Both the position numbers and the translations under genes were made by a program. This document shows, piece by piece, positions 26,069 to 60,228 of a stretch of 64,000 nt of DNA (position 1 is the stretch's first letter; each line of letters opens with the position of its first letter). The stretch lies in IMG/VR virus record IMGVR_UViG_3300045256_000127; one strand, 5' to 3'. This stretch comes from a virus. Lineage: Duplodnaviria; Heunggongvirae; Uroviricota; Caudoviricetes. The notes under the pieces are model-generated. The model did not search any database and was not told the DNA's origin. It saw only the letters and a program-made list of their open reading frames with translations.

Positions 26069-26086
26069 TAAGCAGTAGCCCTGAGA

Positions 26087-26116
26087 AAGCCCGGCCAAGT
26101 GCCGGGCTTTTTCTTT
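26087..26116 (+). terminator. rho-independent terminator
   Basis: aagcccggc-caagt-gccgggctt followed by tttctttaat. Confidence 0.65.
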
Positions 26117-26151
26117 AATAGGACTTCCAAATGTAAGCCGGATTGTGTAAT

Positions 26152-33008: not shown

Positions 33009-33091
33009 AGAAATTCGGCTAGGAAGCCGATACAATGGGCACGGGCGAAGATGCCCGTGCCTGTTTTGTTTCCAAACCAGGGAAGGTTAAC

Positions 33092-34462
33092 ATGTCGAAT
33101 ATGAAGCACCCCATCATGGGGTACGAGAACCTGCACCGCCACTCCGAGTACAGTCTGCTGGACGGGTTCGCAAAGGTCGGCGAGTACGCCGCCTACTCCA
33201 AAGAGGCAAACCAGCGTTACCTCTGCATCACCGACCACGGCGTCATGGGGGCCGTTCCGCAGCAGGTCGGCGAGTCCGAAAAGCACGGCCTGAAGCCCAT
33301 CTTCGGCATCGAGTTCTACATCAACCCGATGCAGCCCAAGTCCGAGTACCGTGAGCAGAACGCCGAATTCCGTAAGGGGTTGGGCACCGAGGAAGAACAG
33401 AAGCGGTTCGACAAGAGTCACCACCTGCTCGGCATCGCCCGCACCAACCAGGGCTACACCAACCTCGTGCGGCTGAGTACCTGGGCCTGGGTTCACGGCT
33501 ACTACCGTCGGCCCCGCATCAACCACGACATCCTGAATCAGTACAAAGAAGGGATCATCTTCACGAGTACCTGTGCCAACAGTGAAATCGCCAACGCCTT
33601 CTTCGACCACGGCGAGGAAGCGGGGATGGCGAAGGTGCAGCAGTACATCGACTTCTTCGGGAAAGAGAACTTCTTCCTCGAACTGATGATGCTCGACTTC
33701 AAGATGCAGAAGCCCTACGACGCCTTCCTGCTACGGGCGATGGATCGGTTCGGCCTGCAAGTCCTGCTCTCCACCGACTGCCACTACTGCAAGAAGGAAC
33801 ACGCCCTGAACCAGCGGATGATGCTCATGGTTCAGACGGGCCGGACCATGCAGGAGATCGAAGCCCTCGTCGCTTCGGGTGCGGCCGACGACCTGTTCGA
33901 GCTTCAGGACACGAACCTGTGGATGAAGACCGAAGATGAGATGAACCAGATGTGGGAGGAGAAGTACCAGGACACCATCGACTACGAAATCTTCAAGTGT
34001 GCGAAGGCGAACACGGTGAAGGTGTGCGAGATGTGTGCCGGGGTGCAGATCGACCGGGGCATCAAGCTGCCGATTGAGGAAGACGAAAAGAAGCAGTTGA
34101 TGAAGTTGATCCGGGAGGGCGTGGACCGGCGGAAGGTGCCGATGACCCGCCAGTACCTTGACCGAATCAAGGAAGAGTACCAACTGATCTGTGACAAGGG
34201 GTTCGCCTCGTACTTCCTGATTCAGAAGAAGATGGTGGATGAGGCGTTGCGGGTGTGCCCGGAGATTTACGGGTTTCAGGACTCGTCGATGGCCCGAGGG
34301 CCGGGGCGGGGGTCAGTAGGCGGCTCGCTGGTCGCCTACTGTCTGGACATTCACGATCTCGATCCGATCAAGCACGGGCTGCTGTTCTCTCGGTTCCTCA
34401 GCCCGGCTCGTGGTGGTAAGCAGATGAAAACTCGCTTCTCGCTTAGCCCCTGCGGCGGTTAA
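33092..34462 (+). CDS. dnaE: DNA polymerase III alpha (DnaE) N-terminal fragment: PHP domain to the GPGRGS helix
   Basis: PHP motif LHRHSEYSLLDG. DnaE hallmark GPGRGSVGGSLVAYCLDI...FLSPAR. Ends 16 aa after FLSPAR, before the catalytic PDxDxDF. Confidence 0.8.
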   Translation: MSNMKHPIMGYENLHRHSEYSLLDGFAKVGEYAAYSKEANQRYLCITDHGVMGAVPQQVGESEKHGLKPIFGIEFYINPMQPKSEYREQNAEFRKGLGTEEEQKRFDKSHHLLGIARTNQGYTNLVRLSTWAWVHGYYRRPRINHDILNQYKEGIIFTSTCANSEIANAFFDHGEEAGMAKVQQYIDFFGKENFFLELMMLDFKMQKPYDAFLLRAMDRFGLQVLLSTDCHYCKKEHALNQRMMLMVQTGRTMQEIEALVASGAADDLFELQDTNLWMKTEDEMNQMWEEKYQDTIDYEIFKCAKANTVKVCEMCAGVQIDRGIKLPIEEDEKKQLMKLIREGVDRRKVPMTRQYLDRIKEEYQLICDKGFASYFLIQKKMVDEALRVCPEIYGFQDSSMARGPGRGSVGGSLVAYCLDIHDLDPIKHGLLFSRFLSPARGGKQMKTRFSLSPCGG

Positions 34463-36429: not shown

Positions 36430-37311
36430 ATGATGCTGGAACTCGCAGTCGCCGACGCCTACGGGGCATGTTTTGAAACCCTGTCGGCAAAGGACATCGG
36501 CGACACGAACGACCTGTCCTACCACAAGCGACTCCAGCCGTCGATCATCAAGCGGGGTAAGTACACCGACGACGCCCAGATGAGCATCGGCGTGGCCGAA
36601 GCTATTCTGGAACGGGACGAGTGGACGAAGCCCTACCTCGCCCAGAAGTTCGTCGATGTCTTCCGCCGTGACCCCCGACGGGGCTACACCGGCCCGTTCT
36701 TCAACATCTTGACCGAGTGCCAGACCGGCGGCGACCTTCTCTCGAAAGTGGACGGCAAGAGCCGCAAGGGCGGCGGCTGCATGAGGGCCGGGCCGTGCGG
36801 CCTCTACCCGACGCTGGAAGAGGTTCAGGAACGGGCCGTCGAGCAGGCGAAGATCACCCACAACTCTGTCGTCGGCGTCATGAGTGCCGCTGCTGCGGCG
36901 TTCATGGTTCACTACTTCGCCTACGATTTGGGAGAGAAAGCCGACCTACGGGAATGGCTGCACAACAACAACTTCCCGTCGAAAGTCACCGGGGCTATCG
37001 ACGACCCGGAGGGCGAGTTCCGTGTTTGGGAACCCGGCCAGAAGGTCGGCAACTTCGGCTGGAGTGTCGTCCTGGCTGCTCTCGCCGCCATCGAGCGGAC
37101 CGATTCCCTGGCCGAGTGCCTGAAGCAGTGCGTGGCCTGGGGCGGCGACACGGACACGGTGGCGACCGTCGCCCTGGCTGCGGCGTCCTGGTCGAAGGAG
37201 ATGAAGAAGGACATGCCGCAGGGACTTGTTGACATGTTGGAGAACGGCAGGTATGGTAGGGACTACCTGATCGAGTTGGATAACAAACTGAAGGCCAAGT
37301 TCGGCCTGTAA
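36430..37311 (+). CDS. ADP-ribosylglycohydrolase (ARH/DraG family)
   Basis: N-terminal ADAYGACFE, hallmark YTDDAQM, and C-terminal GGDTDTVATVALAAAS metal-binding motif. Confidence 0.75.
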   Translation: MMLELAVADAYGACFETLSAKDIGDTNDLSYHKRLQPSIIKRGKYTDDAQMSIGVAEAILERDEWTKPYLAQKFVDVFRRDPRRGYTGPFFNILTECQTGGDLLSKVDGKSRKGGGCMRAGPCGLYPTLEEVQERAVEQAKITHNSVVGVMSAAAAAFMVHYFAYDLGEKADLREWLHNNNFPSKVTGAIDDPEGEFRVWEPGQKVGNFGWSVVLAALAAIERTDSLAECLKQCVAWGGDTDTVATVALAAASWSKEMKKDMPQGLVDMLENGRYGRDYLIELDNKLKAKFGL

Positions 37312-38326: not shown

Positions 38327-38720
38327 GGGGCCGCTCCGGTATCGAACCGGCGTCAACGGCCGAAAGGACTTGCGTAGTGGTTGGTCGGTGGGCCACTTAA
38401 AAAAGCCGACTAAGCCTTAACTGGCGATACTCTCAGAATGGCTGCCTGAGTTGTGCCCTCGCAAGGGGGCACCGCAATAGCGGCCAAATGAGTCTTCGGA
38501 CTCAGGGACTCACAGAAGCGATGCTCCAAGCGTCTGTGTTTCTCACGCCAAAAAGGAGACGAAGCCTAGTGAGTGTCGGTTGTAGCTAGGCGGGTCGCTA
38601 ACCGAGAATCCCGGTGGTTTTGCCAGTTGTACGGCACCGTGGATTATCAACAACTGGATACACGCATAAACGCCTTCGGAAGTTCGCTTGGTCACAGGGG
38701 TTCGACTCCCCTCGGCTCCA
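38327..38720 (+). ncRNA. ssrA: tmRNA (SsrA)
   Basis: 5' GGGGCCGCUCCGGUAUCGAAC and 3' GGGGUUCGACUCCCCUCGGCUCCA are collinear with the E. coli tmRNA ends. The acceptor stem pairs with a G3-U70 wobble (alanine identity). CCA is not encoded. About 394 nt. Confidence 0.75.
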
Positions 38721-38728
38721 CTAAGAAA

Positions 38729-46625: not shown

Positions 46626-49286
46626 ATGAAGGAACGTGACGAACTGGTAGCCCTGCTGGAAGCGGCTTTGGACGCAAAGGGCTTACGGAACGATCAGTAC
46701 ACAAATCGACTGGCTCTCGAACTGAAAGAACTCGACGTTCTTGAAGAACACGAATACTTTCTCAAGCTGCACAAAGAGGGGAAGAAGTACCCTGAGAACG
46801 AGAACAACCTTCTCGTCCCATATCTGCTCGACCTGTGCCCCGACTTCGACATCAACCGGGAACCCGCCTACAACCAGGGCGAGTTCCCCGACATCGACAT
46901 GGACTACCTGCCGCTCGTCCGTGACCACTTGAAGAACGAGTGGGCGGTGAAGGAGTACGGCCGGGATTACGTCTGCTCCATCGGCACCTACGGCACCCTG
47001 GGCATCAAGGCAGCCATGCTCGACATGGCCCGTGTCCACGGCGTCCCGAAGGACGAAGTGCAGATGGTTACGAAACAGGTCGAAGACAAGGACGACGAAG
47101 GCGAGCCGATGGAGTGGGACAAGGCTCTCGAACTCTACGCCGACTTCAAGGCGTTCTGCGAGCGGCACCCGGACGTGGCCGCAGCCGCCAAGATGATGCT
47201 GGACCGGAACAAATCGGGCGGCGTCCACGCCGGGGGACTCATCATCTCCTCCAAGCCGATCCAAGACTTCGTGCCGCTCGAAGTGCGGTCAGTGAAGAAG
47301 GAGAACAAGCACGGCGTCCTCGTCTCGGCGTGGTGCGAGGGGCAGGCCACCCAGGACTTGCAGCCGGTCGGGCTGGTGAAGTTCGACTTGCTGGTGGTGG
47401 ACGGGTTGATGCAGATCGCCCAGGCGTGCGAACTCATCCGCCAGCGGCACGGCATCGAGCGGATCAACGCCCTGCCGGGCGGGCGGAACTGGAGCGACAC
47501 GGCCTACCTCAACGACCCGAAGGCGTTGGCGATGGCGAACAAGGCCGACCTGAAGTGCGTGTTCCAGTTCGGGTCGGACGGCATCCGGGCGATGGTCAAG
47601 CGGGGCGGCGTGACGAGCTTCGACGACCTGATGGCGTACTCGGCCCTCTACCGCCCCGGCCCGCTGAACATGGGGATGGATAAGCACTACTGCGACCGGA
47701 AGAAGGGGATCGAGCAGTGGAGCATCCACCCGCTGCTCATGCCGATCCTGGGGCGGACTTACGGGGTTCTTGTTTACCAAGAGCAGTGTATGCAAGTCCT
47801 CCACACGGTAGGACTCATCCCGCTCATTCACTGCGAGAAGGTCCGCAAGGCCATCTCGAAGAAGAAGATCGCCCTGTTCGCCAAGTACAAGGACATGTTC
47901 ATTACGAACGGTCAGAAGGTACTCGGCGAGAGCGAGGAGTTCGTCCGTGACCTGTGGGACCAGATCGAGGCGTTCGCCGACTACGGCTTCAACGCCAGCC
48001 ACAGTTGTGCGTACACCTACATCTCCTCCCGGCAGTTGTGGCTCAAGGCCCACTACCCGCTGGAGTATTACACTGCGGTCCTGATGTGCGAAGACCAGTC
48101 GGACAAGATTAAGGAGATCAAGCAGGACGCCCGGAAGCACGGCATCGAAGTCAAGCCGGTGCATATCAACCACAGCCGGGAACTGTTCCGCATCGTGGAC
48201 AACGACATCTACTACGGGTTCAGTAACCTGAAGAAAGTCGGCGAGGCGGTGGCGAAGCGGATCGTGGCGGGGCAACCCTACGCCTCGTTCGAGGACTTCC
48301 TGCAACGGTTCGGGACCGACATGCAGGTGTTGAAGCCGCTCATCTCCCTCGGCGTGTTCGAGGAGAAGGTGGACCGGATCACGCTGTACAAGTTCTACGA
48401 CAAGTACAGCGATTGGCTCAAGAAGTGTAAGAGCCGGGACAAGCGGTTCGAGGAGAGCCAAGCCAAGTACGAAACCGAACTCCGGGAACTGCTGAAGCAG
48501 TACGGGGCGGACGAGAAGGAAGTCGAGGCGATGGCCCGGTTCGACGATGATGTCATCAGTGAATGGGAAGCCCGGTTCGGCAACATCAAGGTCGAACAGC
48601 AGTACAAGTACAAGGGCGAGATGCGGACCCGTGAAGTGTCCGTGGTCAAGTTCATGACCGACATCCACGGGCGGCGGAACAAGGGCGTGCGAGGCCAGGA
48701 GGAGAAGACCCGGCTCGACCAAGAGGAACCGCCGACCCTGGCGACCTTCAACGCTAAGACGTGGCCGCTGGAGCAGGCGATCATCGAACTGCTCTCCGAC
48801 GAGAAGGCAGCCGAACAGGAATACTACGGCTTCCAGTGGGTACACGACCTGGAAGAAAGCCCCGACTACGAAGGGTTCACCATCGACCGCTTCACCGAGG
48901 TTGTGGCGAACCGGAAGGAGCCGAGGGGTGCCATCGAGGTTAAGGTACTCCAGGTGACGAAGCGGGAGTTCAAGACCGGCACCATCGCCTACGACGTGAA
49001 GGTGGAAGACGCCAACGGCAAGGTGGTGATCGTCCGGTTCTGGAGCGACGACTACACCCGGTTCCAAGAGGAGATCACGCCCGGTGCGCTCCTACGGCTG
49101 CACGTCAAGCCGCCGGAAGGGTTCCCGAGCTATTCCTTCTGGGCACCGCCGAAGCACCTGCGGCACCGGCTTGTCCCGAAGGATAAGAGCCTGGACGACC
49201 GGCTGTACGTCCTGACGCCGGGGGCGAAGAAGGTTGTCGTGCAAGAGGAGAAACCGGAAGAGGGATTCGAACTGATGGAAGCCTGA
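46626..49286 (+). CDS. dnaE: DNA polymerase III alpha (DnaE) C-terminal fragment: catalytic palm, fingers and OB fold
   Basis: PDIDMDY...YGRDYVCSIGTYGTLGIKAAMLDMARVHG (E. coli PDFDVDF...[29 protein letters not shown]), HAGGLIIS (E. coli HAGGVVIA), and a C-terminal OB-like domain. Confidence 0.85.
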   Translation: MKERDELVALLEAALDAKGLRNDQYTNRLALELKELDVLEEHEYFLKLHKEGKKYPENENNLLVPYLLDLCPDFDINREPAYNQGEFPDIDMDYLPLVRDHLKNEWAVKEYGRDYVCSIGTYGTLGIKAAMLDMARVHGVPKDEVQMVTKQVEDKDDEGEPMEWDKALELYADFKAFCERHPDVAAAAKMMLDRNKSGGVHAGGLIISSKPIQDFVPLEVRSVKKENKHGVLVSAWCEGQATQDLQPVGLVKFDLLVVDGLMQIAQACELIRQRHGIERINALPGGRNWSDTAYLNDPKALAMANKADLKCVFQFGSDGIRAMVKRGGVTSFDDLMAYSALYRPGPLNMGMDKHYCDRKKGIEQWSIHPLLMPILGRTYGVLVYQEQCMQVLHTVGLIPLIHCEKVRKAISKKKIALFAKYKDMFITNGQKVLGESEEFVRDLWDQIEAFADYGFNASHSCAYTYISSRQLWLKAHYPLEYYTAVLMCEDQSDKIKEIKQDARKHGIEVKPVHINHSRELFRIVDNDIYYGFSNLKKVGEAVAKRIVAGQPYASFEDFLQRFGTDMQVLKPLISLGVFEEKVDRITLYKFYDKYSDWLKKCKSRDKRFEESQAKYETELRELLKQYGADEKEVEAMARFDDDVISEWEARFGNIKVEQQYKYKGEMRTREVSVVKFMTDIHGRRNKGVRGQEEKTRLDQEEPPTLATFNAKTWPLEQAIIELLSDEKAAEQEYYGFQWVHDLEESPDYEGFTIDRFTEVVANRKEPRGAIEVKVLQVTKREFKTGTIAYDVKVEDANGKVVIVRFWSDDYTRFQEEITPGALLRLHVKPPEGFPSYSFWAPPKHLRHRLVPKDKSLDDRLYVLTPGAKKVVVQEEKPEEGFELMEA

Positions 49287-51951: not shown

Positions 51952-54042
51952 ATGAGCAAGGCACCGAATCAGGTCACGCTGTACAGCAACGGGATCGGGC
52001 ACTTCCGCCGCACCTACAAGGTGGGCAAGGAAGGCACCACGATCAAGATTCCCTTCCGCAAGGAGTACATCGGCGACGTTCTCGCCAGCCTCGCCGTGTT
52101 CGGCAAGGTCCGCCTCGTCTCCCCGCCCTCGTTCACCCCGGCCAACGCCAACGCCACCCAACTCCAGATCGACAGCAGCAACGCCCTCCGGGGGATGCTG
52201 AAGTCCCTGTCCGGGGCGGCGGTCAAGCTGAAGATGATGCGGGAGAACGTCCGCTCCGGCGTGCTGCTCGGCATCGAGACGGTGACGGTCGCCACCAGCA
52301 ACGGCAACGTGCCGCAGGACTACGTTGTCCTGGGTGAAGGGGCGAACGTGTCCCGTATCCTGCTCACCGACATGCAGGGCGTGGACTTCACTGAGGAGAG
52401 CGTCCAGGCCGAGATCAAGAAGGCTCTGGCGGCGAACTTCGCCAAGATCAAGCCGGAGTCCACGTTCCTCGAAGTGACCCTGCTCTCGAAGGACGAGTCC
52501 GAGACGGAAGCCGTTCTTCAGTACACCCAGCCGGTCGCCGCCTGGAAGATGACCTACGGCATCCGCCAGGACAAGGACCGCTTCTCCCTCGAAGGGGCGG
52601 CGGTCATCGACAACAACACCGACGAGGACTGGAACGACTTCACCGTCAGCGTCGTCACCGGCAACCCGATCAGCTTCAGCACCGACTTGGCGAACATCGT
52701 CGTGCCGAAGCGTAACCACGTCAGCATCGTGGACGCCCAAGCCCTCGGCAACGTCGCCCTGGCCGAGAGCCAACTGGAGTGCGCCTTCGCCGGTGCGGCG
52801 GCGGGCGGGGCTGCACCGAAGGGGCTGCGTGCCCGTGGCGTGACCCGTGGCATCGAACCGGCGATGGCCTACGCCTCCGTCAGCAACCGGGCGTCGTTCG
52901 GGATGGCCGAGCTTCAGGACGCTTCGGACTACGCCGAGGCTGACATGGAGCAGGCCGAAGTCGCCAGCGTGGAGGCGAAGGAAGTCGGCGACTTCTGCGT
53001 CTTCACCAGCGGCGAGACGATCAGCCTGGGCAGCAAGCGGTCGGCCGTCGTCCCGATGTTCAACGTCGGCCTCAGCACCGCCGGGGGCGTGTTGCTCTAC
53101 AAGGAGGCCAGCCACGCCCGCCGCCCGTTCCGGGCGGTGAAGTTCAAGAACGAGACGCCCTACTCGCTCGGCAAGGGCAAGACCGTCGTCTACCTGGACG
53201 GCGTGTTCCAGGGCGAGTGCGTGCTGGACGCCGCCAAGCCGGGCGACCAGCGGACCCTGCCGCACTGCCTGGAGAACGGCGTCCGCATCAGCCTGGAGCG
53301 GAAGCCCAGCGAGAGCCGGGTCGTGTCCGTCGGGTTCAAGAACGGCAGCGTGGTGACGCAGACCGTCAGCCGCCGGACCTACGTCTACGAGTGCGAGAAC
53401 AAGAAGGACGAAGCCTTCAAGGTGGTCATCGATCACATCAAGGGGCTGTCCGACCCGACGTACACCTTCAGCGGGATCGAACTCGCCGAGAAGGAGAAGA
53501 CGGCCACCGGCCAGAGGCTCTACTTCAACCTGCCCGCCAAGCCGAAGCCGGACAGCGACGAGCCGAAGGTTCACGCCCTGACGGTGGTGGAACAGCAGAT
53601 CGAGAGCCGGACGGATTACATCGTCGGCAACATGAACTACGTCATCCAGGTCAGCAAGGGGCACAGCGAGATCACCAACGACCCGCTGTACCAGGAGTGC
53701 CTGGAACTCCAGAAGCAGATCGGGAAGGCCCAGGAGAAGATCGAGAAGCTGGAGGGGCAGGTCCGCAAGCTGGAAACCCAGAGCGAGCGGACCCGCAAGA
53801 ACATGGCGGCGGCGAAGGAGGGTCCGGGCGGCTCGACCTACGACAAGTGGGTCAGCGATCTGGACAAGGCCGACACCGAAATCCGCACCACGCACGACGA
53901 CCTGATCCCGGCTGCCGAGAAGGAGCGGGACGCCCTGACCGAGAAGCTGAACGAGAAGATGACCGCCCTGTCGGCAAGCTGGACCGAGTGCTGCGGCGGC
54001 AAGCCCGACTGCGGGCACAAGACCCCGGCCCTGGTCGGCTAA
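51952..54042 (+). CDS. DUF4139/DUF4140-family protein (TIGR02231-like) with a C-terminal coiled coil
   Basis: N-terminal VTLYSNGIGHFRRTYKV...GKVRLVSPP pattern. A 700-aa protein with a heptad-rich C-terminal quarter. Confidence 0.5.
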   Translation: MSKAPNQVTLYSNGIGHFRRTYKVGKEGTTIKIPFRKEYIGDVLASLAVFGKVRLVSPPSFTPANANATQLQIDSSNALRGMLKSLSGAAVKLKMMRENVRSGVLLGIETVTVATSNGNVPQDYVVLGEGANVSRILLTDMQGVDFTEESVQAEIKKALAANFAKIKPESTFLEVTLLSKDESETEAVLQYTQPVAAWKMTYGIRQDKDRFSLEGAAVIDNNTDEDWNDFTVSVVTGNPISFSTDLANIVVPKRNHVSIVDAQALGNVALAESQLECAFAGAAAGGAAPKGLRARGVTRGIEPAMAYASVSNRASFGMAELQDASDYAEADMEQAEVASVEAKEVGDFCVFTSGETISLGSKRSAVVPMFNVGLSTAGGVLLYKEASHARRPFRAVKFKNETPYSLGKGKTVVYLDGVFQGECVLDAAKPGDQRTLPHCLENGVRISLERKPSESRVVSVGFKNGSVVTQTVSRRTYVYECENKKDEAFKVVIDHIKGLSDPTYTFSGIELAEKEKTATGQRLYFNLPAKPKPDSDEPKVHALTVVEQQIESRTDYIVGNMNYVIQVSKGHSEITNDPLYQECLELQKQIGKAQEKIEKLEGQVRKLETQSERTRKNMAAAKEGPGGSTYDKWVSDLDKADTEIRTTHDDLIPAAEKERDALTEKLNEKMTALSASWTECCGGKPDCGHKTPALVG

Positions 54043-54073
54043 AAGCAACGAGATCGGGAAACCGAGAACCCAG

Positions 54074-54108
54074 CCGGGTAAAACCGGCTGGGTTTTTTCT
54101 TGTTTGCT
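54074..54108 (+). terminator. rho-independent terminator
   Basis: aacccagccgg-gtaaaa-ccggctgggtt followed by ttttcttg. Confidence 0.7.
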
Positions 54109-54123
54109 AATAACTACTGTATT

Positions 54124-54366
54124 ATGACAGACATCAACAAGTTATTCCTCATCAAGTGTCCGAGATGTGCTTGGTCGAAGTTCACCAGCGGCCTGAAGCA
54201 AGACTTGACCGGCCTCTTCGAGATTAAGAAATGTGCCACCTGCGGCGGGCCACGCAAGTTCCGTTGTCAGAAGTGTGGGCAGATTGCTACAATGAAGAGG
54301 CTGTCAGGTAACAACAAGGTCGGTACGGATGCCTCTAGCACTGATTCAACCGAGACAACGAGCTAA
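54124..54366 (+). CDS. small zinc-ribbon protein
   Basis: CPRC...CATCGG...CQKCG. Confidence 0.4.
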   Translation: MTDINKLFLIKCPRCAWSKFTSGLKQDLTGLFEIKKCATCGGPRKFRCQKCGQIATMKRLSGNNKVGTDASSTDSTETTS

Positions 54367-55519
54367 CCACCCCTCACGCCAAGACGAAGAACGGCTCGAA
54401 CAGGTTAACTTCCACGTCCACAAGCTCAACAGTCGTGTAAGACCGGCACGGGATCGCCGCCTCATCGTGGGCTGCTTCTCTGAGTTCGGGTGCGAGATCG
54501 TCGGGCGGATGTACTGCATCCCCCGACTGCTGAAGCGATTCCCCGGTCGCTACGTCATCGCAATGGGCTGGCACGGTCGTGAGTACCTGTACCGCCATCT
54601 GGTAGACGAGTTCTGGGAGATCGACGAGAAGTACATGTGGTTACGCAACCACGTCTACGCCTTCCACCACCACTCCGACAACCTCACCGCCATCGAGCGG
54701 TCCGCCGCCAAGCACGGCGTCGTCGTCCCCTCCGCTGGCCTCGGCCGGTACGTCGTCGGGAATTTCTGTAAGACGTGCGGTAAATACTGGAACGAGTGGC
54801 GTCACACATCCGACACCTGTCCGGTCTGCAACAGCACCAACATCATCCCCAGCATCTTCGGCAACACCGCCGACTACAAGGACAGTGCGATCCGCATCCC
54901 CCAACCGAAAGGGAAGATCGCCGATTGGGCGAAGTCCGTCGTCGGCGAGAACGCCGTGGCGATCTTCGCCCGAGGCCGCAAGACCTACGGCCGGAACCTG
55001 CCGCCGGAGTTCTACGTCAAGCTGATCGCCCAGCTACGCAGCCAGGGCTACAACCCGATCTGGTTGGGTGAGAAGATCAGCACGCTGCCGTGCCCGGTGG
55101 ACGATGTGATCGACTTCTCCCGTGACCCGACCGCACGGCACCTGGAGAACACGCTGGCGTTGATTTGCGCCTGCAAGTTCACCATCCAGTTCTGGACGGC
55201 ATCTTCGAGATTGGCGGGGTGCATGGGTGTGCCCTACATCCTGTTCGAGAGTCCCGAGCAGATTTACTCCTCCGGCCTGAACCCAGGACAGGAGGGGAAG
55301 CGTCTCGACCTGACGACGTTCGGCCCGAGGAAAGTGGTGCTGTCGCATTATCTTAACGTGCTGAACAACCAGGACGGGGCTTTACTGAAGGTGAACGAGG
55401 CCATCGCCGAGTTGCACGCCGGGAACCACGAGGACATGATCGGGATGGTGGAAGACCCCGAAGCCACGCAGCTATTGAAAGACAAGTTCTACGAATCCGT
55501 GAGGGACAATGGAAAGTAA
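54329..55519 (+). CDS. GT9-like (heptosyltransferase-family) glycosyltransferase, start uncertain
   Basis: C-terminal TASSRLAGCMGVPYILF resembles the GT9 DSGxMHLAAALGxPxVALF block. Overlaps the upstream gene. Confidence 0.4.
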   Translation: MPLALIQPRQRANHPSRQDEERLEQVNFHVHKLNSRVRPARDRRLIVGCFSEFGCEIVGRMYCIPRLLKRFPGRYVIAMGWHGREYLYRHLVDEFWEIDEKYMWLRNHVYAFHHHSDNLTAIERSAAKHGVVVPSAGLGRYVVGNFCKTCGKYWNEWRHTSDTCPVCNSTNIIPSIFGNTADYKDSAIRIPQPKGKIADWAKSVVGENAVAIFARGRKTYGRNLPPEFYVKLIAQLRSQGYNPIWLGEKISTLPCPVDDVIDFSRDPTARHLENTLALICACKFTIQFWTASSRLAGCMGVPYILFESPEQIYSSGLNPGQEGKRLDLTTFGPRKVVLSHYLNVLNNQDGALLKVNEAIAELHAGNHEDMIGMVEDPEATQLLKDKFYESVRDNGK

Positions 55520-56642
55520 CGTACCAACCTTCGTCAAGAGGGCGGCAGAGAGAATGGGATACAACCGGGACTCCTTCGTCGAGAAGGACATGCCCACGGT
55601 ATTGAGTAACATCCACATCCTACCGTTTTTCGGCGACATGCGATCCACCGCACTGATGGCATCTCTGGTCGCCACCCGGTTGCAGGAAGACCTGAAGGGG
55701 AAGTATCTGGTGGTCTGTAGTTGGCCGGGAGCGAGGAAGTTGTTCCCGTATGTTAATGAATTCTGGAGCCACAAGGACAACGGGATCATAAATTCTCTTG
55801 CAATGGGGGCGAACAACTTCTATAATGGCTCTGACGCACAAGTCGAAGTGAAACGTGCCTTGTACGACCATTTCGAAAATGTCCTCTCCTACGACGGCAT
55901 TAAGAAATACTACGACAATGGCTTCGCCACCGACTACTGGCGGCAGGGCAAGACAGTAAAACGCTGTCTGCCCGGAGTACCCTCAGTGACGACGCTGACT
56001 GCCGACTTCAAGAACGAGATGACCCGGAAGGCGGGTGATAAGGTATTGGTCTACCCTACCACCCGCATGCGATCCTGGCAGAAGGGCAAGGTCGAGTACC
56101 TGCCCGTGCCCCAGGACGTGTGGGTCCACATCTGCGAGCGGCTGCTGGCCGAGTCCATCACACCCGTCGTTTACCAAAACAACCAGACCCACGACCTGTC
56201 CAAAGTCTTTGCGGACAGGTGCATCTACGTCGTGCCGAAAGACTGGACACACGCCATGAGTGCGATGCGGGCCTGCGGCATGGCACTGGATGTCCACTCG
56301 GGCATCTCCCGGCTGGCTCTGCTGGCCCGGTGCCCCTTCGTGGCGGTAGACGAGAGGATGCGGTTCTCTGCCCACAAGGAATACGAGTTCGACGACCTAG
56401 CCGGGGAGTGCATGTACCGAAAGTACATCTTCTCGGCTTCGACCGTTTTCCTGGGCGGAAGCAAGGCCGACTGGAATAACACCGTCGTGGACGGCGTTAT
56501 TAACGAACTCAAGGGGCTGCGAAAAACGGCCTCCGTTGCGGCACTCCCCGATGCCACAGAGTCTTACAGCGACGTGTCTTACGACAAAGTGCGTGAACTC
56601 AAGCACAAACGGTTAGGAATCCGTTTTATTAGGAAGTATTAA
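55509..56642 (+). CDS. GT9-like (heptosyltransferase-family) glycosyltransferase
   Basis: N-terminal ILPFFGDMRSTALMASLV (GT9 ILxIRLSAxGD). C-terminal CGMALDVHSGISRLALLARCPFVAV (GT9 DSGPMHLAAALGTPTVALF). Confidence 0.5.
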   Translation: MESNVPTFVKRAAERMGYNRDSFVEKDMPTVLSNIHILPFFGDMRSTALMASLVATRLQEDLKGKYLVVCSWPGARKLFPYVNEFWSHKDNGIINSLAMGANNFYNGSDAQVEVKRALYDHFENVLSYDGIKKYYDNGFATDYWRQGKTVKRCLPGVPSVTTLTADFKNEMTRKAGDKVLVYPTTRMRSWQKGKVEYLPVPQDVWVHICERLLAESITPVVYQNNQTHDLSKVFADRCIYVVPKDWTHAMSAMRACGMALDVHSGISRLALLARCPFVAVDERMRFSAHKEYEFDDLAGECMYRKYIFSASTVFLGGSKADWNNTVVDGVINELKGLRKTASVAALPDATESYSDVSYDKVRELKHKRLGIRFIRKY

Positions 56643-56653
56643 GGAGAATCGAC

Positions 56654-57028
56654 ATGGCTAACGTAACTAATGTGCGGGTCGAGTTGAAGCCGGGCCGTGG
56701 TAACGACTACCACGACCGTGACCGGGCCTTCAAGATCATGCTGGCCCTCTTCAAGAGGAAGGTCGCCGACGCCGGGGTCTTGTCTCAGTACAAGGATCAC
56801 GAGGCTTATGTGTCCCCGTCCCGCAAGGCACGCCTGAAGATGCGTGCCACGGTCCAGGCGAGGAAGCTCGATGAGATCGAGGGCAAGCTGCGTCGGGGTG
56901 AGCCGATTGAGAAAGACAAGAATTTGGTGAAGAAAGTCCAGACCCGAATGAAGAAGAAGAAACAACGTAAAGACAAGCAGCGTGACGGTGGTTACAACTT
57001 CAACTACCGGGAGTACGCTGATAGTTAA
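56654..57028 (+). CDS. rpsU: ribosomal protein bS21 homologue with a Lys-rich C-terminal extension
   Basis: VRVELKPGRGNDYHDRDRAFKIMLALFKRKVADAGVLSQYKDHEAYVSPSRKARLK parallels bacterial S21 (I.V.....ALRRFKR.cekaGvL.E.rr.e.YEKPsekrkR). AAGGAGA RBS. Confidence 0.65.
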   Translation: MANVTNVRVELKPGRGNDYHDRDRAFKIMLALFKRKVADAGVLSQYKDHEAYVSPSRKARLKMRATVQARKLDEIEGKLRRGEPIEKDKNLVKKVQTRMKKKKQRKDKQRDGGYNFNYREYADS

Positions 57029-57036
57029 GGGGACAA

Positions 57037-57327
57037 ATGTCGAAGAACAAACAGGTAATGTCCATCGCCATCGAGCCGGACCTGCATAACGAACTCAAGT
57101 CTTATGCACGCAAGAAGGGCTTGTCAGTTTCGGCCTACATTGGCACGTTGGTAAGCAAGGCCGTGAAGCTGCCGATTGACGATGACCCGGTAATTGTTGG
57201 GAAACCGGCCGACGAGGACGTTGTTCCTGTTATGCTGAAGATTCCTGCGAACCTCAAGGGTGACAAGGTGAACCTCGAAGCGTGGCTCGCCGCCCAGGTC
57301 GCAGGGATCGTCAACAAGCTGGGATAA
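57037..57327 (+). CDS. ribbon-helix-helix (CopG/Arc-type) DNA-binding protein
   Basis: MSIAIEPDLHNELKSYARKKGLSVSAYIGTLVSKAV beta-strand plus two-helix pattern. Confidence 0.55.
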   Translation: MSKNKQVMSIAIEPDLHNELKSYARKKGLSVSAYIGTLVSKAVKLPIDDDPVIVGKPADEDVVPVMLKIPANLKGDKVNLEAWLAAQVAGIVNKLG

Positions 57328-57358
57328 GCTTGACTTCCAAAACGGGGATGGGTAACAT

Positions 57359-57835
57359 ATGAAACTGGTTGCACCGGAAGACATCCCTCTGGGGGAGATC
57401 GTACCGCTCGACAACAAGGCCAAAATCTACAACATCTTCACCAATATGATTAAGATGTGTGAAGAGAAAGAAGGGATTGGCCTATCGGCGGTACAGGTCG
57501 GCCTGCCATACAAGATGTTTGTCGTCAAAGACGGCGACAAATACAGGTGTTTCCTGAACTGCGATTACGAACCGACTACCGAAGCTAAACGAACGTTGTC
57601 CCTCGAAGGGTGCCTGTCTCTGCGGTCGCTAGACGGTCGCTTGCGATTCTTCGAGGTTGAGCGGTGGGACCAGATCAAGGTATCTGGAACCGAATTTTGT
57701 TTATCATCTATTGATTTTATATTTGGTTTTATTGAGTGCGTCAGTTCCCCCTTGTGCGTTGTGTTTCAACATGAGATTGACCACGACAAGGGGGTTCTGA
57801 TCTCTCAGATAGGCAAGGAAGTATCGCTCTTTTGA
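57359..57835 (+). CDS. def: peptide deformylase
   Basis: Three PDF motifs: GIGLSAVQVG, EGCLS and QHEIDH (HExxH). Confidence 0.8.
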   Translation: MKLVAPEDIPLGEIVPLDNKAKIYNIFTNMIKMCEEKEGIGLSAVQVGLPYKMFVVKDGDKYRCFLNCDYEPTTEAKRTLSLEGCLSLRSLDGRLRFFEVERWDQIKVSGTEFCLSSIDFIFGFIECVSSPLCVVFQHEIDHDKGVLISQIGKEVSLF

Positions 57836-57861
57836 AAAACTAAGGACAAGGATGTGCCGAA

Positions 57862-58308
57862 ATGAGTGAACAAGTCGAAACGTGGGGTCGGTGGAACATT
57901 TACAGAGATACCACCGTAGAGCAACACATCCGAGAGCGTGCATACTTCATGTGGCTGGAGGCCGGGTGCCCCGACGGTCGGGACAACGAGTTTTGGTTGT
58001 CCGCCGAACGGGAACTTCTCCAGTCGCCTAAAACCAACTGGCGTGGCCCTTCTTACATTATGGAGGAGGGCGTCATCCACTGCCCATATGTTCCCGAGGA
58101 GTTCAATTCTCCTGTAGTGGATGGCATCGATTTCACTTCTACTGAAGAAGTGACCATCGAGTTGACGAAGCGTTACGAACCTACCCAGAACACGTTAAGC
58201 TACGAACCTACCGGGCGGACTCGTGAAGACCCGGTAGCCTCCCGAGCCAGTGCCCTCATCCGGTTCGGTCGTAAGCTTCTGGACAAGGTGAAGGGTAAAA
58301 GTGAGTGA
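57862..58308 (+). CDS. DUF2934-domain protein
   Basis: RERAYFMWLEAGCPDGRDNEFWLSAEREL matches the DUF2934 core. Confidence 0.5.
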   Translation: MSEQVETWGRWNIYRDTTVEQHIRERAYFMWLEAGCPDGRDNEFWLSAERELLQSPKTNWRGPSYIMEEGVIHCPYVPEEFNSPVVDGIDFTSTEEVTIELTKRYEPTQNTLSYEPTGRTREDPVASRASALIRFGRKLLDKVKGKSE

Positions 58309-58403
58309 TCTCTTTCAACGAGTCCTTGCCGCCAACCGGGGCAAGGACTTCTTCTTGGTCCGGGTAATCCGTGACATGTACACAAAGGAAGGTCGAGCAA
58401 AGT

Positions 58404-58682
58404 ATGGCGTTGACACTGAAACAAGTGGCCGATGTATGTCTGCTCCACCAGGGGCACAAGGAGTGCCGCTACCTGGAGGGGGACGACACGGACCCCCAGA
58501 AGTTCTACTGCAAGAAGAAGTCACCGGACCGAAAGCACATTGACGACTTGGTGCAGGAGTACCTGGACGAGTGCCGGACGAACGGCGAAGACCCCAGGGA
58601 CGGCGGGGTGGCCCTCGCCGACGGTTGTGCGGGATACATTAACCTGAAGAACGTGCCGCAAGGCTACGACGTGGAGGACTGA
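58404..58682 (+). CDS. Cys-containing hypothetical protein; possibly the 3' part of a frameshifted gene starting at GTG 58301
   Basis: Good coding composition from MALTLKQVADVCLLHQGHKECRY on. An upstream GTG ORF (58301) with an AAGGTGAAGGG RBS is in the 0 frame and decays after about 35 codons. Confidence 0.35.
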   Translation: MALTLKQVADVCLLHQGHKECRYLEGDDTDPQKFYCKKKSPDRKHIDDLVQEYLDECRTNGEDPRDGGVALADGCAGYINLKNVPQGYDVED

Positions 58683-58936
58683 TGACGGCAGGAATCGAAG
58701 TAATCAAAGCGAAGAACCCGAGCCTCGGCCAGTGGCTCGAACAGTGGAAGAAGCGGTACGAGAAGAAGTACAACTTCGCCGACTCGAACGATCAGGCCAC
58801 GTTCTACGAGGGCATGACGGAGATGGCGAAGCATCTGGCCCACTCCTCCAACGGGGCGGGCGTCTCGCTTGTGCTGAACCCGGAGGGCGTGACGACGGTC
58901 TACATCAACGCCGCACCGAAGTTGGTGACGCCATGA
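58682..58936 (+). CDS. hypothetical protein
   Basis: ATGA-type overlap with the upstream stop. Confidence 0.4.
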   Translation: MTAGIEVIKAKNPSLGQWLEQWKKRYEKKYNFADSNDQATFYEGMTEMAKHLAHSSNGAGVSLVLNPEGVTTVYINAAPKLVTP

Positions 58937-59139
58937 CTAAAGAAGAGTTCTATGAATCGGTGATGAAGATCGTCACGGCCGGTGCCGTCCCTGTCGTCAT
59001 GTGCCAGTGCGGGTATGGGTCTTGGCAATATGAAGGCCACACTAAGTACCTACACCAAAACTACGAAGGGCAGTGCAAGAAATGCGGCGAAACAGGTAAG
59101 AAGCATTTGTTCGGGGACTTCAACGCCCCGGAGTTGTGA
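58933..59139 (+). CDS. small Cys-rich (zinc-binding?) protein
   Basis: CQCGYGSW...CKKCG. ATGA overlap with the upstream gene. Confidence 0.4.
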   Translation: MTKEEFYESVMKIVTAGAVPVVMCQCGYGSWQYEGHTKYLHQNYEGQCKKCGETGKKHLFGDFNAPEL

Positions 59140-59145
59140 AATGAA

Positions 59146-59172
59146 AAAGCCCGGCGGAAGCCGGGCTTTTTG
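59146..59172. terminator. bidirectional rho-independent terminator
   Basis: aaaaagcccggc-ggaa-gccgggcttttt between convergent genes. Confidence 0.7.
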
Positions 59173-59173
59173 T

Positions 59174-59686
59174 TTACTGATAGTTGACTTGGTGCTTCTT
59201 CACCAGGGCAAGGACTTTCTCCTCAACATCAGTGTACATCGCCGCACGGAACACATTGTCCTGTAGCTCCTCGTCGGCCTTCAAGGCGACCTGCTGGGCG
59301 AGCAGGTTAGCTGCCTTGTCTGATTCCTTAGCTTGCTTCCGATAGCCCATCGCCACGAAGCCAGCCACGACGGCGATCACGCCACCGATCAGCAGTCCGC
59401 CGTTCCCCGAGAGAATCTGGATGCCGCTGTTTTGGTTTGTACTCTGCAAGTTCGCCATGCCAGCCTGGACGTGATCCAGCTTGCTGTTTTGGATTTCGGC
59501 GTTCTGCTTCAAATTGAACAGGTCATTCTTGAACCCATTCTGAATAGTTTCCAGTTGGTCGATCCGCCCGTTTTGGTTGTTAAGCTTCTGATCCAACTTC
59601 GGCTCGAACCGGGGCGACAAGTTGCCGCAGCCGGAAAGACCGACCATCACGAATAGGGCAAGAAATAGCGTAAGTAGCTTTTTCAT
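59174..59686 (-). CDS. lipoprotein with a periplasmic Q/N-rich coiled coil and a C-proximal TM segment (unimolecular-spanin-like architecture)
   Basis: GGAGGT RBS. Signal MKKLLTLFLALFVMVGLSGC with lipobox LSGC. Lpp-like heptads. TM GGLLIGGVIAVVAGFVAMGY followed by about 50 aa. Confidence 0.5.
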   Translation of the reverse strand: MKKLLTLFLALFVMVGLSGCGNLSPRFEPKLDQKLNNQNGRIDQLETIQNGFKNDLFNLKQNAEIQNSKLDHVQAGMANLQSTNQNSGIQILSGNGGLLIGGVIAVVAGFVAMGYRKQAKESDKAANLLAQQVALKADEELQDNVFRAAMYTDVEEKVLALVKKHQVNYQ

Positions 59687-59734
59687 ATCCTACCTCCTCG
59701 TAGGTATTTATGCACCGAAAAGGAATATCCACTT

Positions 59735-59764
59735 GCCTCCCGCCCGGATGGTGCTACAATGGCG
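59735..59764 (+). promoter_or_regulatory. possible sigma70-like promoter (TTGCCT-N16-TACAAT)
   Basis: Lies 30 nt upstream of the CAAGGAGG RBS of the next gene. Confidence 0.3.
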
Positions 59765-59793
59765 TTTGGCTGCGCCTGTCAAGGAGGACTGGC

Positions 59794-60228
59794 ATGGACG
59801 ACGAGACGGTGGACTTCACTAAGTTCGACGAACCCAACCTGGAACTGAAAATCTACATCAAGGCTCTGGAGCGGCAAACTCTGGAGGCCATTGAGAGGTT
59901 TTTCAAGGGCCGGACGTGGTTCTGCGGCGGTCCCATCCCGAAGAACTACCTTTACTCCAAGCAGAGCGTGGACTTGGTGTTGAGTACCGAGTTCCTTAAC
60001 GGCATTGATGAAGTCCGGGCACTCCTGCCCCAAGAGGAGCCGCCCAAAGGTTTCGACCCCAAACGGATCGATTGGGACACGCACCGCCTGTTACAGCTTC
60101 TTCACGAAGTCAAGCGGTTCGGGATTCCGAAAGAGTTCCAGGCGGGTATGATCCTGCTCTACATGCGGTTCTGCATGGGGATTTCAATGCCGGAAAAGAA
60201 GAGGAACCTTGCTCATATAACCTCGTGA
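59794..60228 (+). CDS. hypothetical protein
   Basis: CAAGGAGG RBS then MDDETVDFTKFDEPN. Confidence 0.45.
   Translation: MDDETVDFTKFDEPNLELKIYIKALERQTLEAIERFFKGRTWFCGGPIPKNYLYSKQSVDLVLSTEFLNGIDEVRALLPQEEPPKGFDPKRIDWDTHRLLQLLHEVKRFGIPKEFQAGMILLYMRFCMGISMPEKKRNLAHITS

Follow-up and report, generated by a model that had tools for sequence, protein, structure and literature searches.

The analysed window, a 64-kb stretch of DNA taken in its entirety, carries three consecutive small genes for a homologue of ribosomal protein bS21, a ribbon-helix-helix (RHH)-type protein and a peptide deformylase (PDF). The open reading frames are located precisely where the original prediction had placed them, on the + strand (Table 1). 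We found that the trio makes up the 3' portion of a compact cassette with the order GTa-GTb-S21-RHH-PDF, in which GTa and GTb are two GT9-like paralogues.

Table 1 Features of the window in and around the cassette, with the tmRNA
Feature	Coordinates	Strand	Evidence and remarks
tmRNA, predicted tag GDTLRMAA*	38327..38721	+	ARAGORN; Rfam RF00023 79.4 bits (cut-off 47), full model covered
Intrinsic terminator	54064..54097	+	14-bp stem with 8 G-C pairs, then T-run
Small CxxC...CxxC zinc-ribbon-like ORF	54124..54366	+	Directly 5' of the cassette
GTa, GT-B-fold GT9-like (heptosyltransferase-like)	54329..55519	+	First conserved cassette gene; inserted CxxC...CPxC zinc ribbon
GTb, distant GTa paralogue	55509..56642	+	Second cassette gene; 11-nt overlap with GTa
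bS21 homologue, 124 aa	56654..57028	+	PF01165 30.9 bits (cut-off 27), E 2.3e-7, residues 30-69
Small RHH-type protein, 96 aa	57037..57327	+	PHROG Arc-like repressor, E 5.6e-6 and 2.4e-5
Peptide deformylase, 158 aa	57359..57835	+	PF01327 64.7 bits (cut-off 22.8), E 9.5e-18
DUF2934 protein	57862..58308	+	PF11154, E 6.8e-15

The identity of the S21 homologue was confirmed by a PF01165 profile search above the cut-off, a match shared by 44 of the 45 family members, and by PDB sequence searches, in which all 18 best matches were bS21 chains (best E 2e-3). Its core motifs are kept, namely the N-terminal strand (V.V), FKR..xxxGVL and Y.xPSxxRK+ in the basic helix, and alignments with the E. coli protein and other solved bS21 chains span residues 23-83. 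The protein is composed of a core of about residues 1-72, with an insertion of 11-13 residues after the first strand, and a basic C-terminal extension of ~50 residues, which contains the predicted KKKKQRKDKQRD tail and ends with GYNFNYREYADS. With 124 aa it exceeds the solved bS21 chains (51-88 aa) by this extension, which is kept in the subclade; both the insertion and the basic tail are absent from solved bS21 structures. The tail is as constrained as the core (dN/dS 0.03-0.17 and 0.09-0.30, respectively), and an AAGGAG Shine-Dalgarno sequence is located 8 nt 5' of the S21 start. Whereas the tail had been correctly predicted to be present, it turned out not to be the unique feature it was taken for: about 12-15 of 99 family representatives share it in homologous form, with G[ED]x[VI]...LV[KR]K[IV] followed by basic residues and an aromatic end, and S21 length varies from 69 to 126 aa across the clade. 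Judging from these alignments, the phage S21 family has a tail of variable length in common, and that of the window's S21 is among the longest. A search with the clade S21 profile against 1.84 billion proteins returned only those 99 representatives at E<1e-3; as far as sequence divergence can tell, the lineage is old, phage-specific and highly diverged from cellular bS21.

The assignment of the second gene to the RHH proteins also held, via PHROG, a profile match to ArtA and an AlphaFold model, with the Pfam models RHH_4, RHH_3 and RHH_5 each scoring below their cut-offs (12.5-15.6 bits). The clade profile matches the regulator ArtA (3gxq, E 0.007) as well as SvtR and AvtR, and one relative has a faint precomputed RHH_1 match. 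An AlphaFold2 single-sequence model of moderate confidence (pLDDT 73 overall) contains the strand-helix-helix arrangement (E5-12, H14-26, H31-43; pLDDT 80-85 there), and its best Foldseek match is AvtR 4hv0 (prob 0.96, TM 0.51-0.53). The N-terminal RHH unit (residues ~5-43) is followed by a linker and a conserved strand-plus-helix unit (residues ~63-95); the C-terminal half is modelled as a strand and a single helix with a weak match to AvtR. The idea of a tandem RHH protein was discarded, as hhalign of the N-terminal against the C-terminal half gave a probability of 0.1% and thus no internal duplication by sequence. Some relatives, with a length of 129-138 aa, have a duplicated N-terminal unit. 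dN/dS values of the RHH gene range from 0.02 to 0.06.

The third gene encodes a complete PDF, as predicted. Besides the PF01327 match, it hits PHROG 2890 (E 6.5e-15) and 17 PDFs in the PDB, the best being 2ew5 (E 1.2e-8), with 3uwa (S-SSM7) among them. All three catalytic motifs, GIGLSAVQ (39-46), EGCLS (83-87) and QHEIDH (137-142), are intact without loss of a catalytic residue, and G41, Q46, C85, H138, E139 and H142 do not vary among 14 sequences of the subfamily. Going by these residues, the catalytic site is intact and deformylase activity is predicted. The C-terminus is short, with 16 residues after HEIDH, and the ribosome-docking helix of type 1B is absent. Marks of the subfamily are VFQHEIDH, a ...GKEVxL[FWY] end and an extra variable segment of ~6-12 residues before motif 3; the subfamily was found in this phage clade only. 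Among 185,579 GTDB species genomes, no close cellular relative of the PDF was detected; since the matches reach at most 36% identity, are partial and come from many phyla, the PDF provides no host signal.

The fold call, made for GTa, gives a GT-B two-Rossmann fold with GT9 structures as the closest ones. GTa does not match the Pfam model PF01075 (Glyco_transf_9) at E<=1, and its clade profile has no sequence match in the PDB. GTb resembles GTa (BLASTP, 24% identity, E 5e-7), the HMMs of both proteins cross-match and GTb is present in every cassette locus. At 90% identity, GTa homologues form 869 clusters. Since an HldE-like kinase/adenylyltransferase gene is located at 21271-22641, ADP-heptose is a possible donor, on circumstantial grounds.

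On its 5' side, the cassette is preceded by a strong intrinsic terminator with a perfect 11-nt inverted repeat (AACCCAGCCGG/CCGGCTGGGTT), which closes the upstream unit at the end of a DUF4139-like gene and is the likely 5' limit of the transcription unit of the cassette; no terminator was found within the cassette. The small zinc-ribbon-like ORF in between, for which the ATG start is our choice, has no Pfam match and is a member of gene cluster 10, the homologues of which sit 5' of GTa in most loci; in the co-transcribed unit that we propose, it precedes GTa. On the 3' side, the DUF2934 gene is a lineage-specific insertion between PDF and the next conserved gene and occurs only in close relatives of the window; in three other loci (L027, L029, L030) the gene next to PDF is homologous to the one at window positions 58371-58682, without a DUF2934 gene in between. 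Apart from the terminator, no convincing operator-like repeats were found at the cassette start and in the region from S21 to PDF. A sigma-70-like site in the gap between RHH and PDF (57330-57358, 9/12 matches) was ruled out as a general promoter because this gap measures about -1 nt in most relatives.

Each of the 38 IMG/VR loci with a PDF of this subfamily has the order GTa-GTb-S21-RHH-PDF on one strand, compared to none of the 22 viral loci with other PDFs. The identical order recurs in about ten more loci from metagenomes (L001-L004, L025, L027-L030, L254, L256). All five representatives of the S21 family whose context was examined, four of which had been picked purely by S21 similarity, are likewise located in this cassette. 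A first scan of IMG/VR for PDFs, with close relatives only as query, yielded 20 loci at 29-35% identity, none of them with S21 within 6 kb, so that the linkage of PDF to S21 is clade-specific. The relatives were gathered via PDF similarity and not via S21 alignments; a narrow S21 alignment used as search pattern gave 312 pattern matches with no relatives among them, a broad one offered no segment of sufficient conservation for such a search, and a scan of metagenome contigs delivered mostly ordinary bacterial def genes and little gain. Along the cassette, the median intergenic gaps are -4, 11, 2.5 and -1 nt (45-46 loci), with enlarged gaps in 3 of 46 loci (L206, L207, L210). Start/stop overlaps of 1-4 nt are common, indicating coupled expression, and translational coupling within the cassette is probable. 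S21, RHH and PDF genes are alike under purifying selection (dN/dS 0.02-0.30). We infer that the cassette is co-transcribed and inherited throughout a large clade of huge phages related to LR756511.1.

LR756511.1, a 595-kb huge phage deposited as 'uncultured phage', is the closest public genome to the window and the sole INPHARED match for both the PDF and the C-terminal part of DnaE; neither blastn in distant mode with positions 54000-60000 nor tblastn with S21 found a match in INPHARED. IMG/VR contigs bearing relatives reach 572 kb. Within the window we found genes for a gp32-like SSB, RecA, ThyX, a split DnaE and PrkA/DUF444/SpoVR, i.e. phage-type replication and nucleotide metabolism, and a Shine-Dalgarno sequence in front of 35 of 70 genes compared to a background of 12%. 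Capsid, terminase, tail or other virion structural genes were not identified within the 64 kb, and the phage assignment thus rests on the relatives. That the element is instead a large plasmid-like or cellular element with a similar set of translation genes would fit this lack of structural genes, and some large putative plasmids do carry analogous sets (Al-Shayeb et al., PMC7162821). However, the nearest records are IMG/VR viral contigs and a genome deposited as phage, the window harbours the gp32-like SSB and the phage-type genes listed above, and GTDB species genomes lack a close relative of the PDF, which makes a non-phage origin highly improbable. The window most probably belongs to the genome of a huge phage akin to LR756511.1, and its S21-RHH-PDF trio is nothing unusual for huge phages of this known kind.

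In the original prediction, the trio was combined with a tmRNA at 38.3 kb into a coordinated programme to remodel host ribosomes. The tmRNA itself is real, as ARAGORN and RF00023 agree on it. It is located 18 kb 5' of the cassette in a separate transcription unit and is not part of the cassette; a Pfam search of ~58 ORFs in the window revealed no further translation gene and no SmpB. In LR756511.1, the tmRNA lies 9.7 kb 5' of PDF, an IF3 gene follows 5 kb downstream, and the tRNAs number at least 31. That these genes act on host translation is a reasonable view, put forward for huge phages in just this form (PMC7162821), but because of the distant tmRNA and the lack of further translation genes in the window, the coordination goes no further than a suggestion. 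We infer coordination at the level of co-expression; a joint mechanism is not part of our claim. Nor does the picture of a purely translational cluster agree with a unit that starts with two GT9-like paralogues, is embedded in 15 kb of collinear sequence and is found in one lineage without PDF. The view of S21 and PDF as separate rarities is not supported either, as each of them is widespread among phages and their co-occurrence is on record (PMC5591237, PMC7029224, PMC7162821).

How could the cassette act during infection? The phage bS21 would be made in infected cells and take the exchangeable bS21 site on the platform of the host 30S subunit, near the 3' end of 16S rRNA, where its long basic tail may add RNA contacts. 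On the 30S subunit, it could bias or sustain Shine-Dalgarno-led initiation on phage mRNAs. The PDF would supply extra deformylase while phage proteins are made in a burst, acting without a ribosome-docking helix like other viral PDFs, while the RHH protein is a putative DNA-binding transcription regulator, possibly of the cassette or of a temporal gene class. The GT9-like enzymes would move a sugar to an acceptor, with ADP-heptose as a conceivable donor. Taken as a whole, a huge-phage cassette with S21, PDF, RHH and GT roles as proposed here is the best explanation, to which we assign a probability of roughly 55%.

Conserved adjacency is in itself no proof of a joint function, because the surrounding 15 kb are collinear across the clade about as much as the cassette itself. 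S21 and PDF could thus be independent auxiliary genes in a collinear core block, their co-location being historical only and their adjacency and co-transcription functionally meaningless. The order of the upstream clusters 12/17/14/10 is indeed nearly as well preserved as that of the cassette, and the same applies downstream to 2, 3-, 4, 5, 13, 18, 9, dCMP deaminase, 11 and the TPP enzyme. Moreover, PDF is absent or catalytically dead in some lineages while S21 and RHH stay: the L252/L253 lineage has the cassette without PDF, and in locus L258 a PDF homologue has lost all three motifs, so that PDF catalysis is not indispensable to the unit. In pelagimyophages, S21 and PDF are both core genes, yet unlinked (PMC7029224). 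On the other hand, in the close and intermediate relatives that were compared gene by gene, insertions and losses affect the surroundings of the five genes (DUF2934, DHH and DUF4139 vary), and the frequent start/stop overlaps speak for coupled expression. Hence, we regard a purely historical co-location as possible, although on the doubtful side.

A different role of the S21-like protein, as a host shut-off factor or an RNA-binding protein off the ribosome rather than a productive ribosome component, seems unlikely to us. It would be compatible with the inhibition observed for E. coli ribosomes containing a viral bS21, whose in vitro activity was about 5% of the normal level (PMC6375957), with a highly diverged lineage of 99 representatives in 1.84 billion proteins and five of five examined contexts in the cassette, and with an N-terminal insertion and 50-residue basic tail that solved bS21 do not have. 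The protein might block the bS21 site for initiation on host mRNAs, or its tail might bind phage or host RNA off the ribosome. The core motifs, however, are kept above the Pfam cut-off, the core is under purifying selection and heterologous inhibition may only mean incompatibility (PMC6375957). It is also conceivable that all cassette genes serve one pathway, in which the GT9-like pair, in a unit regulated by RHH, glycosylates part of the translation machinery, be it the tail of the phage S21, a different ribosomal protein or the nascent chain, to yield phage-specific modified ribosomes, a notion with very little probability in our view. Likewise very unlikely is the idea of one unit in which glycosylation of a translation component together with PDF would create marked ribosomes favouring phage mRNAs; the obvious candidate for such a modification would be the basic tail of the phage bS21, which is conserved and rich in Tyr and Asn. 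In a weaker version, the S21 tail alone would reach the mRNA exit/anti-Shine-Dalgarno region and confer mRNA selectivity.

Phage bS21, PDF and the retuning of translation by huge phages have already been published, so that the window adds a member and not a principle to this field. S21, PDF and tmRNA, too, are published as a translation-redirecting set; what is new is the arrangement GTa-GTb-S21-RHH-PDF. The invariant cassette is a marker of a large, globally distributed clade of huge phages. With ~3.5 kb, it is also a compact clonable unit with which ribosome selectivity of S21, the need for regulator and PDF and a heptosyltransferase-like role can be addressed.

Among characterised systems, the bS21 of pelagiphage HTVC008M is taken up into 70S ribosomes of E. 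coli (Mizuno et al. 2019, PMC6375957), and ribosomes containing it are only ~5% active in vitro, an inhibition that, according to the authors, may merely reflect incompatibility. Like this protein and the bS21 of Bacteroidetes phages (Chen et al. 2022, PMC9723584), the window's S21 is a small homologue under purifying selection. Known phage bS21 have C-termini that diverge between clades and are conserved within them, as in the S21 family described here, and the action proposed for them, replacement of host bS21, is the one we propose, with ribosome incorporation shown for HTVC008M. In contrast, the bS21 of HTVC008M and Bacteroidetes phages seem to have been acquired from the host in recent times (54% identity to the host protein in HTVC008M), have roughly 60-75 aa, and their genes are unclustered or located among structural genes and expressed late. 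The window's S21, with its 124 aa, represents an old lineage specific to phages, and its gene has a fixed place, together with PDF, in a cassette within a replication/metabolism region.

Viral PDFs have been called one of the most abundant viral gene families, and those without a C-terminal domain can be active in vivo, as found for Vp16 PDF (Grzela et al. 2017, PMC5591237). Vp16 PDF and S-SSM7 PDF (Frank et al. 2013, PMC3660681) have three intact motifs and lack the alpha-3 helix, as is the case here, and the short conserved C-terminal end of the window's PDF recalls the last residue of Vp16 PDF, which matters for the function of that enzyme. With only about 25-35% identity, the window's PDF belongs to a distinct subfamily. 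The RHH protein shares the N-terminal strand-helix-helix and sequence similarity with the RHH regulators Arc/Mnt, ArtA of pSK41, SvtR and AvtR, AvtR being most similar to the whole-chain model; unlike this N-terminal unit, its conserved C-terminal strand-plus-helix has no detectable sequence similarity to that unit (hhalign 0.1%). GTa is 14-15% identical to the GT9 heptosyltransferases WaaC/WaaF and the protein heptosyltransferase TibC, without a Pfam GT9 match, and differs from them in its zinc ribbon insertion.

Huge phages carry rpS21, PDF, tmRNA, IF3 and many tRNAs, a set that has been read as redirecting host translation (Al-Shayeb et al. 2020, PMC7162821). That study highlights N-terminal extensions of phage S21, whereas the window's S21 is extended C-terminally; a text search of it found no description of the conserved cassette or of the GT9-like pair. 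LR756511.1, which belongs to its huge-phage set, likewise has the order GTa-GTb-S21-RHH-PDF, a tmRNA, rpS21 and PDF, and the window's subclade differs from it by the split DnaE and the added DUF2934 gene.

The three consecutive genes of the original prediction were recovered at exactly the predicted positions, with intergenic gaps of 8 nt between S21 (the bS21 homologue) and RHH (a small protein with an N-terminal ribbon-helix-helix domain) and of 31 nt between RHH and PDF (the peptide deformylase). S21 scores 30.9 bits against its Pfam model (gathering cut-off 27 bits, E 2.3e-7, residues 30-69), and in the PDB the top sequence hits (18/18) all come from bS21 chains in ribosome structures, the alignments covering residues 23-83. 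PDF reaches 64.7 bits (cut-off 22.8) and has an intact active site with all three catalytic motifs (GIGLSAVQ, EGCLS, QHEIDH); in the PDB it comes closest to PDFs from bacteria and to the enzyme of cyanophage S-SSM7. RHH is the least secure assignment of the trio, every Pfam RHH model scoring below its cut-off; the predicted regulator gene is supported by residues 1-44 matching PHROG Arc-like repressor families (E 5.6e-6), by a family profile matching the RHH regulators ArtA, SvtR and AvtR, and by a single-sequence AlphaFold2 model (pLDDT 73), in which residues 5-43 form a strand-helix-helix and whose top fold match is AvtR. The tmRNA was likewise found by ARAGORN and Rfam (79.4 bits). Pairwise whole-gene dN/dS among four close relatives points to purifying selection on S21 (0.08-0.24), RHH (0.02-0.06) and PDF (0.10-0.16).

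Features of the window discussed in the text
Feature	Coordinates	Strand	Description
Sulfotransferase	727-1434		sulfotransferase-family protein
SSB	4327-5352		gp32-like ssDNA-binding protein
HldE-like enzyme	21271-22641		bifunctional; PfkB kinase and cytidylyltransferase-like domain; PHROG heptose kinase/adenylyltransferase
PrkA-DUF444(YeaH)-SpoVR(YcgB)	24008-29388		triad; Pfam E 4e-77, 3e-65 and 4e-104, respectively
SPFH/Band-7	31059-33008		domain protein, 649 aa
DnaE, first half	33035-34462		split DnaE-type polymerase
ADP-ribosylglycohydrolase	36430-37311		PF03747, E 4.5e-31; ~1 kb upstream of tmRNA
tmRNA	38327-38721		
DnaE, second half	46626-49286		12 kb from first half
Terminator	54064-54097		strong; upstream of cassette unit
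GTa	54329-55519		distant paralogue of GTb
GTb	55509-56642		distant paralogue of GTa
S21	56654-57028	+	124 aa; Pfam Ribosomal_S21 match
RHH	57037-57327	+	96 aa; PHROG Arc-like repressor match
PDF	57359-57835	+	158 aa; Pfam Pep_deformylase match
AT-rich stretch	57690-57740		within PDF gene
DUF2934 gene	57862-58308		after PDF; insertion specific to window's subclade
Cys-rich protein	58371-58682		next conserved gene after DUF2934; kept across clade
Convergent gene	59174-59686		

Together with GTa and GTb, two GT9-like glycosyltransferase paralogues, the trio forms a cassette, GTa-GTb-S21-RHH-PDF. Close S21 relatives (71-90% identity) share this neighbourhood, and relatives found via PDF (45-54% identity) keep the order, with ORFs of ~380-407 and ~377-382 aa ahead of S21 and one of 85-96 aa between S21 and PDF. 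When HMMs of the five families were run on every fetched locus, all 38 of 38 IMG/VR loci with this PDF subfamily carried the five genes on one strand in this order, while none of the four partners was found at any of 22 other viral PDF loci; in 20 viral PDF loci of marine type, too, no S21 lay within 6 kb. For independent sampling, 1.84 billion proteins were searched with an S21 profile, which returned a family of 99 clusters at 50% identity, and representatives were chosen from it on S21 similarity alone. All four (P0128, P0134, P0138 and P0151; S21 profile E 4e-23 to 1e-7) sit inside the same cassette, which suggests that the recovered S21 family is in essence a lineage proper to this phage clade and not a recent host acquisition.

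Median intergenic distances along the cassette are -4, 11, 2.5 and -1 nt, and start/stop overlaps of 1-4 nt are common (45-46 loci); enlarged gaps inside the block occur at 3/46 loci (L206, L207, L210). In the window a strong terminator precedes the unit, and none comparable was found ahead of the convergent gene. Spacing and terminators look like a picture of co-transcription with translational coupling. But does adjacency speak for joint function? Clustering of all ORFs of 44 loci revealed that a region of ~15 kb is collinear across the clade, the cassette being one stretch of a larger conserved order, in which clusters 12, 17, 14 and 10 precede GTa and clusters 2, 3-, 4, 5, 13, 18, 9, dCMP deaminase, 11 and a TPP enzyme follow PDF. 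Given this wider collinearity, adjacency argues only weakly for joint function; the tight spacing argues more strongly, but for co-expression. In relatives inspected gene by gene, insertions and losses lie outside the five-gene block, and the DHH and DUF4139 genes upstream of it are variable; a greater stability of the block than of its surroundings is a candidate feature only.

Compared with E. coli bS21, the entire S21 family has extra residues inserted behind the first strand. The basic tail to which the original prediction drew attention is, in the window's subclade, a nearly invariant C-terminal extension of ~50 residues (seven sequences). Since a homologous extension, with the pattern G[ED]x[VI]...LV[KR]K[IV] and then a stretch of basic residues and an aromatic/acidic end, occurs in ~12-15 of 99 family representatives and S21 lengths at cassette loci range from 69 to 126 aa (mostly 80-96 aa; solved bacterial bS21 chains, 51-88 aa), the tail represents the upper extreme of a feature that is variable overall and conserved within lineages, as Chen et al. 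2022 (PMC9723584) likewise report for other phage bS21. It is constrained at least as strongly as the core (dN/dS 0.03-0.17 versus 0.09-0.30, four close relatives).

PDF ends only 16 residues after HEIDH and hence lacks the C-terminal helix by which the E. coli enzyme docks on ribosomes; other viral PDFs are also without this helix, yet active in vivo (PMC5591237). Hallmarks of the subfamily are VFQHEIDH, a GKEVxL[FWY] end and, ahead of motif 3, a variable segment; no close cellular relative was found in 185,579 GTDB species genomes (identity <=36%). No part of the subfamily is less conserved than this segment (EFCLSSIDFIFGFIEC, between motifs 2 and 3), which the AT-rich stretch encodes; GC3 of the PDF gene is 0.60, below its neighbours (0.71-0.82). 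Two loci of a related lineage, L252 and L253 (JGI 3300045312 and 3300045315; L252 1-2836), carry GTa, GTb, a long-tailed S21 (124 aa) and RHH (138 aa) without PDF; their RHH has a duplicated N-terminal RHH unit, and the versions in L207 and L228 measure 129-131 aa. At the PDF position of L258 (958-1479) lies a 173-aa homologue (hhalign probability 86%, E 5.6e-6) that has lost motifs 1-3 (e.g. VVQDQIAL versus VFQHEIDH); it is either a dead enzyme that retains the PDF fold or a gene undergoing decay.

GTa and GTb share 24% identity (E 5e-7), and neither has a Pfam glycosyltransferase or PDB sequence match. GTa, with 869 homologue clusters (identity 55-92% among the matches listed), is more conserved than S21 and PDF. 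Its AlphaFold2 model (pLDDT 91.4, pTM 0.89; 76-sequence alignment) suggests that it works like a GT9-type GT-B glycosyltransferase; by the sequence-profile membership test it falls outside GT9. On circumstantial grounds, the HldE-like enzyme could be the ADP-heptose source for both.

Nearly all window genes lie on one strand and most ORFs fall outside known families; in this GC-rich stretch, many real genes are overlapped by long, high-GC1 ORFs on the opposite strand, which mislead naive longest-ORF calling. Replication and nucleotide genes comprise a DnaE-type polymerase, SSB, RecA, a helicase, ThyX, a dNMP kinase and a dCMP deaminase. The phage PrkA/DUF444/SpoVR triad is a stress/sporulation-associated kinase module. 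No virion gene was found in the 64-kb window, so the phage assignment rests on its relatives: viral contigs in IMG/VR, the longest 572 kb, and LR756511.1, a 595,163-bp 'uncultured phage', which, going by its accession series, may be a huge phage of Al-Shayeb et al. 2020. Among 50,697 GenBank phage records there was no nucleotide match, and LR756511.1 was the only one matching PDF (45% identity) and the DnaE C-part (42%) at protein level. On the unsplit LR756511.1 enzyme (1183 aa), the first DnaE half covers residues 2-437 and the second, starting at residue 86 of its own sequence, residues 439-1179, a clean break; tmRNA, ADP-ribosylglycohydrolase, an AAA ATPase and genes without known function lie between. 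The split is common to close relatives L001 and L002; DnaE is unsplit in L029 and L030.

What could the trio do for the phage? bS21 joins the 30S subunit late and is exchangeable; it sits at the platform beside the anti-Shine-Dalgarno region, and initiation on natural mRNAs requires it (PMC6375957, PMC7162821). Shine-Dalgarno leaders precede 35/70 window genes versus 12% background, and S21 itself is preceded by AAGGAG. On established knowledge, phage S21 would most plausibly take the place of host bS21, its basic tail altering or stabilising initiation, while PDF would supply extra deformylation capacity and RHH would act as a transcription regulator. A pelagiphage bS21 does incorporate into E. 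coli ribosomes, and ribosomes with viral bS21 showed 5% activity in vitro (PMC6375957); phage S21 may thus have an inhibitory role instead.

A remodelling of host translation, as a general interpretation, was already proposed as translation redirection for huge phages, for which S21, PDF, tmRNA, IF3 and tRNAs are listed (PMC7162821); the cassette itself is not purely 'translational', because GTa and GTb belong to it. The premise that S21 and PDF are separate rarities is wrong, since huge phages carry both and both are core genes of pelagimyophages (PMC7162821, PMC7029224). LR756511.1 shares the cassette; its tmRNA (L031 5263-5615) lies 9.7 kb upstream of PDF, on that gene's strand, IF3 lies downstream, and its tRNAs number at least 31; a one-strand cluster of 31 tRNA genes, one with a 4-base anticodon call (gaaa), lies at 267000-291100 (L260 1-24100). 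Neither tRNA genes nor an SmpB gene were found in the window. The clade retains the tmRNA, and both predicted tags end in MAA, not the usual LAA (GDTLRMAA in the window, ANPEFAMAA in LR756511.1). Within limited literature coverage, we found no published description of the cassette or of this phage-specific S21 lineage. In pelagimyophages S21 and PDF are unlinked (PMC7029224), whereas here they are linked in a conserved cassette order, and this modest structural detail is the new part of an already known idea.
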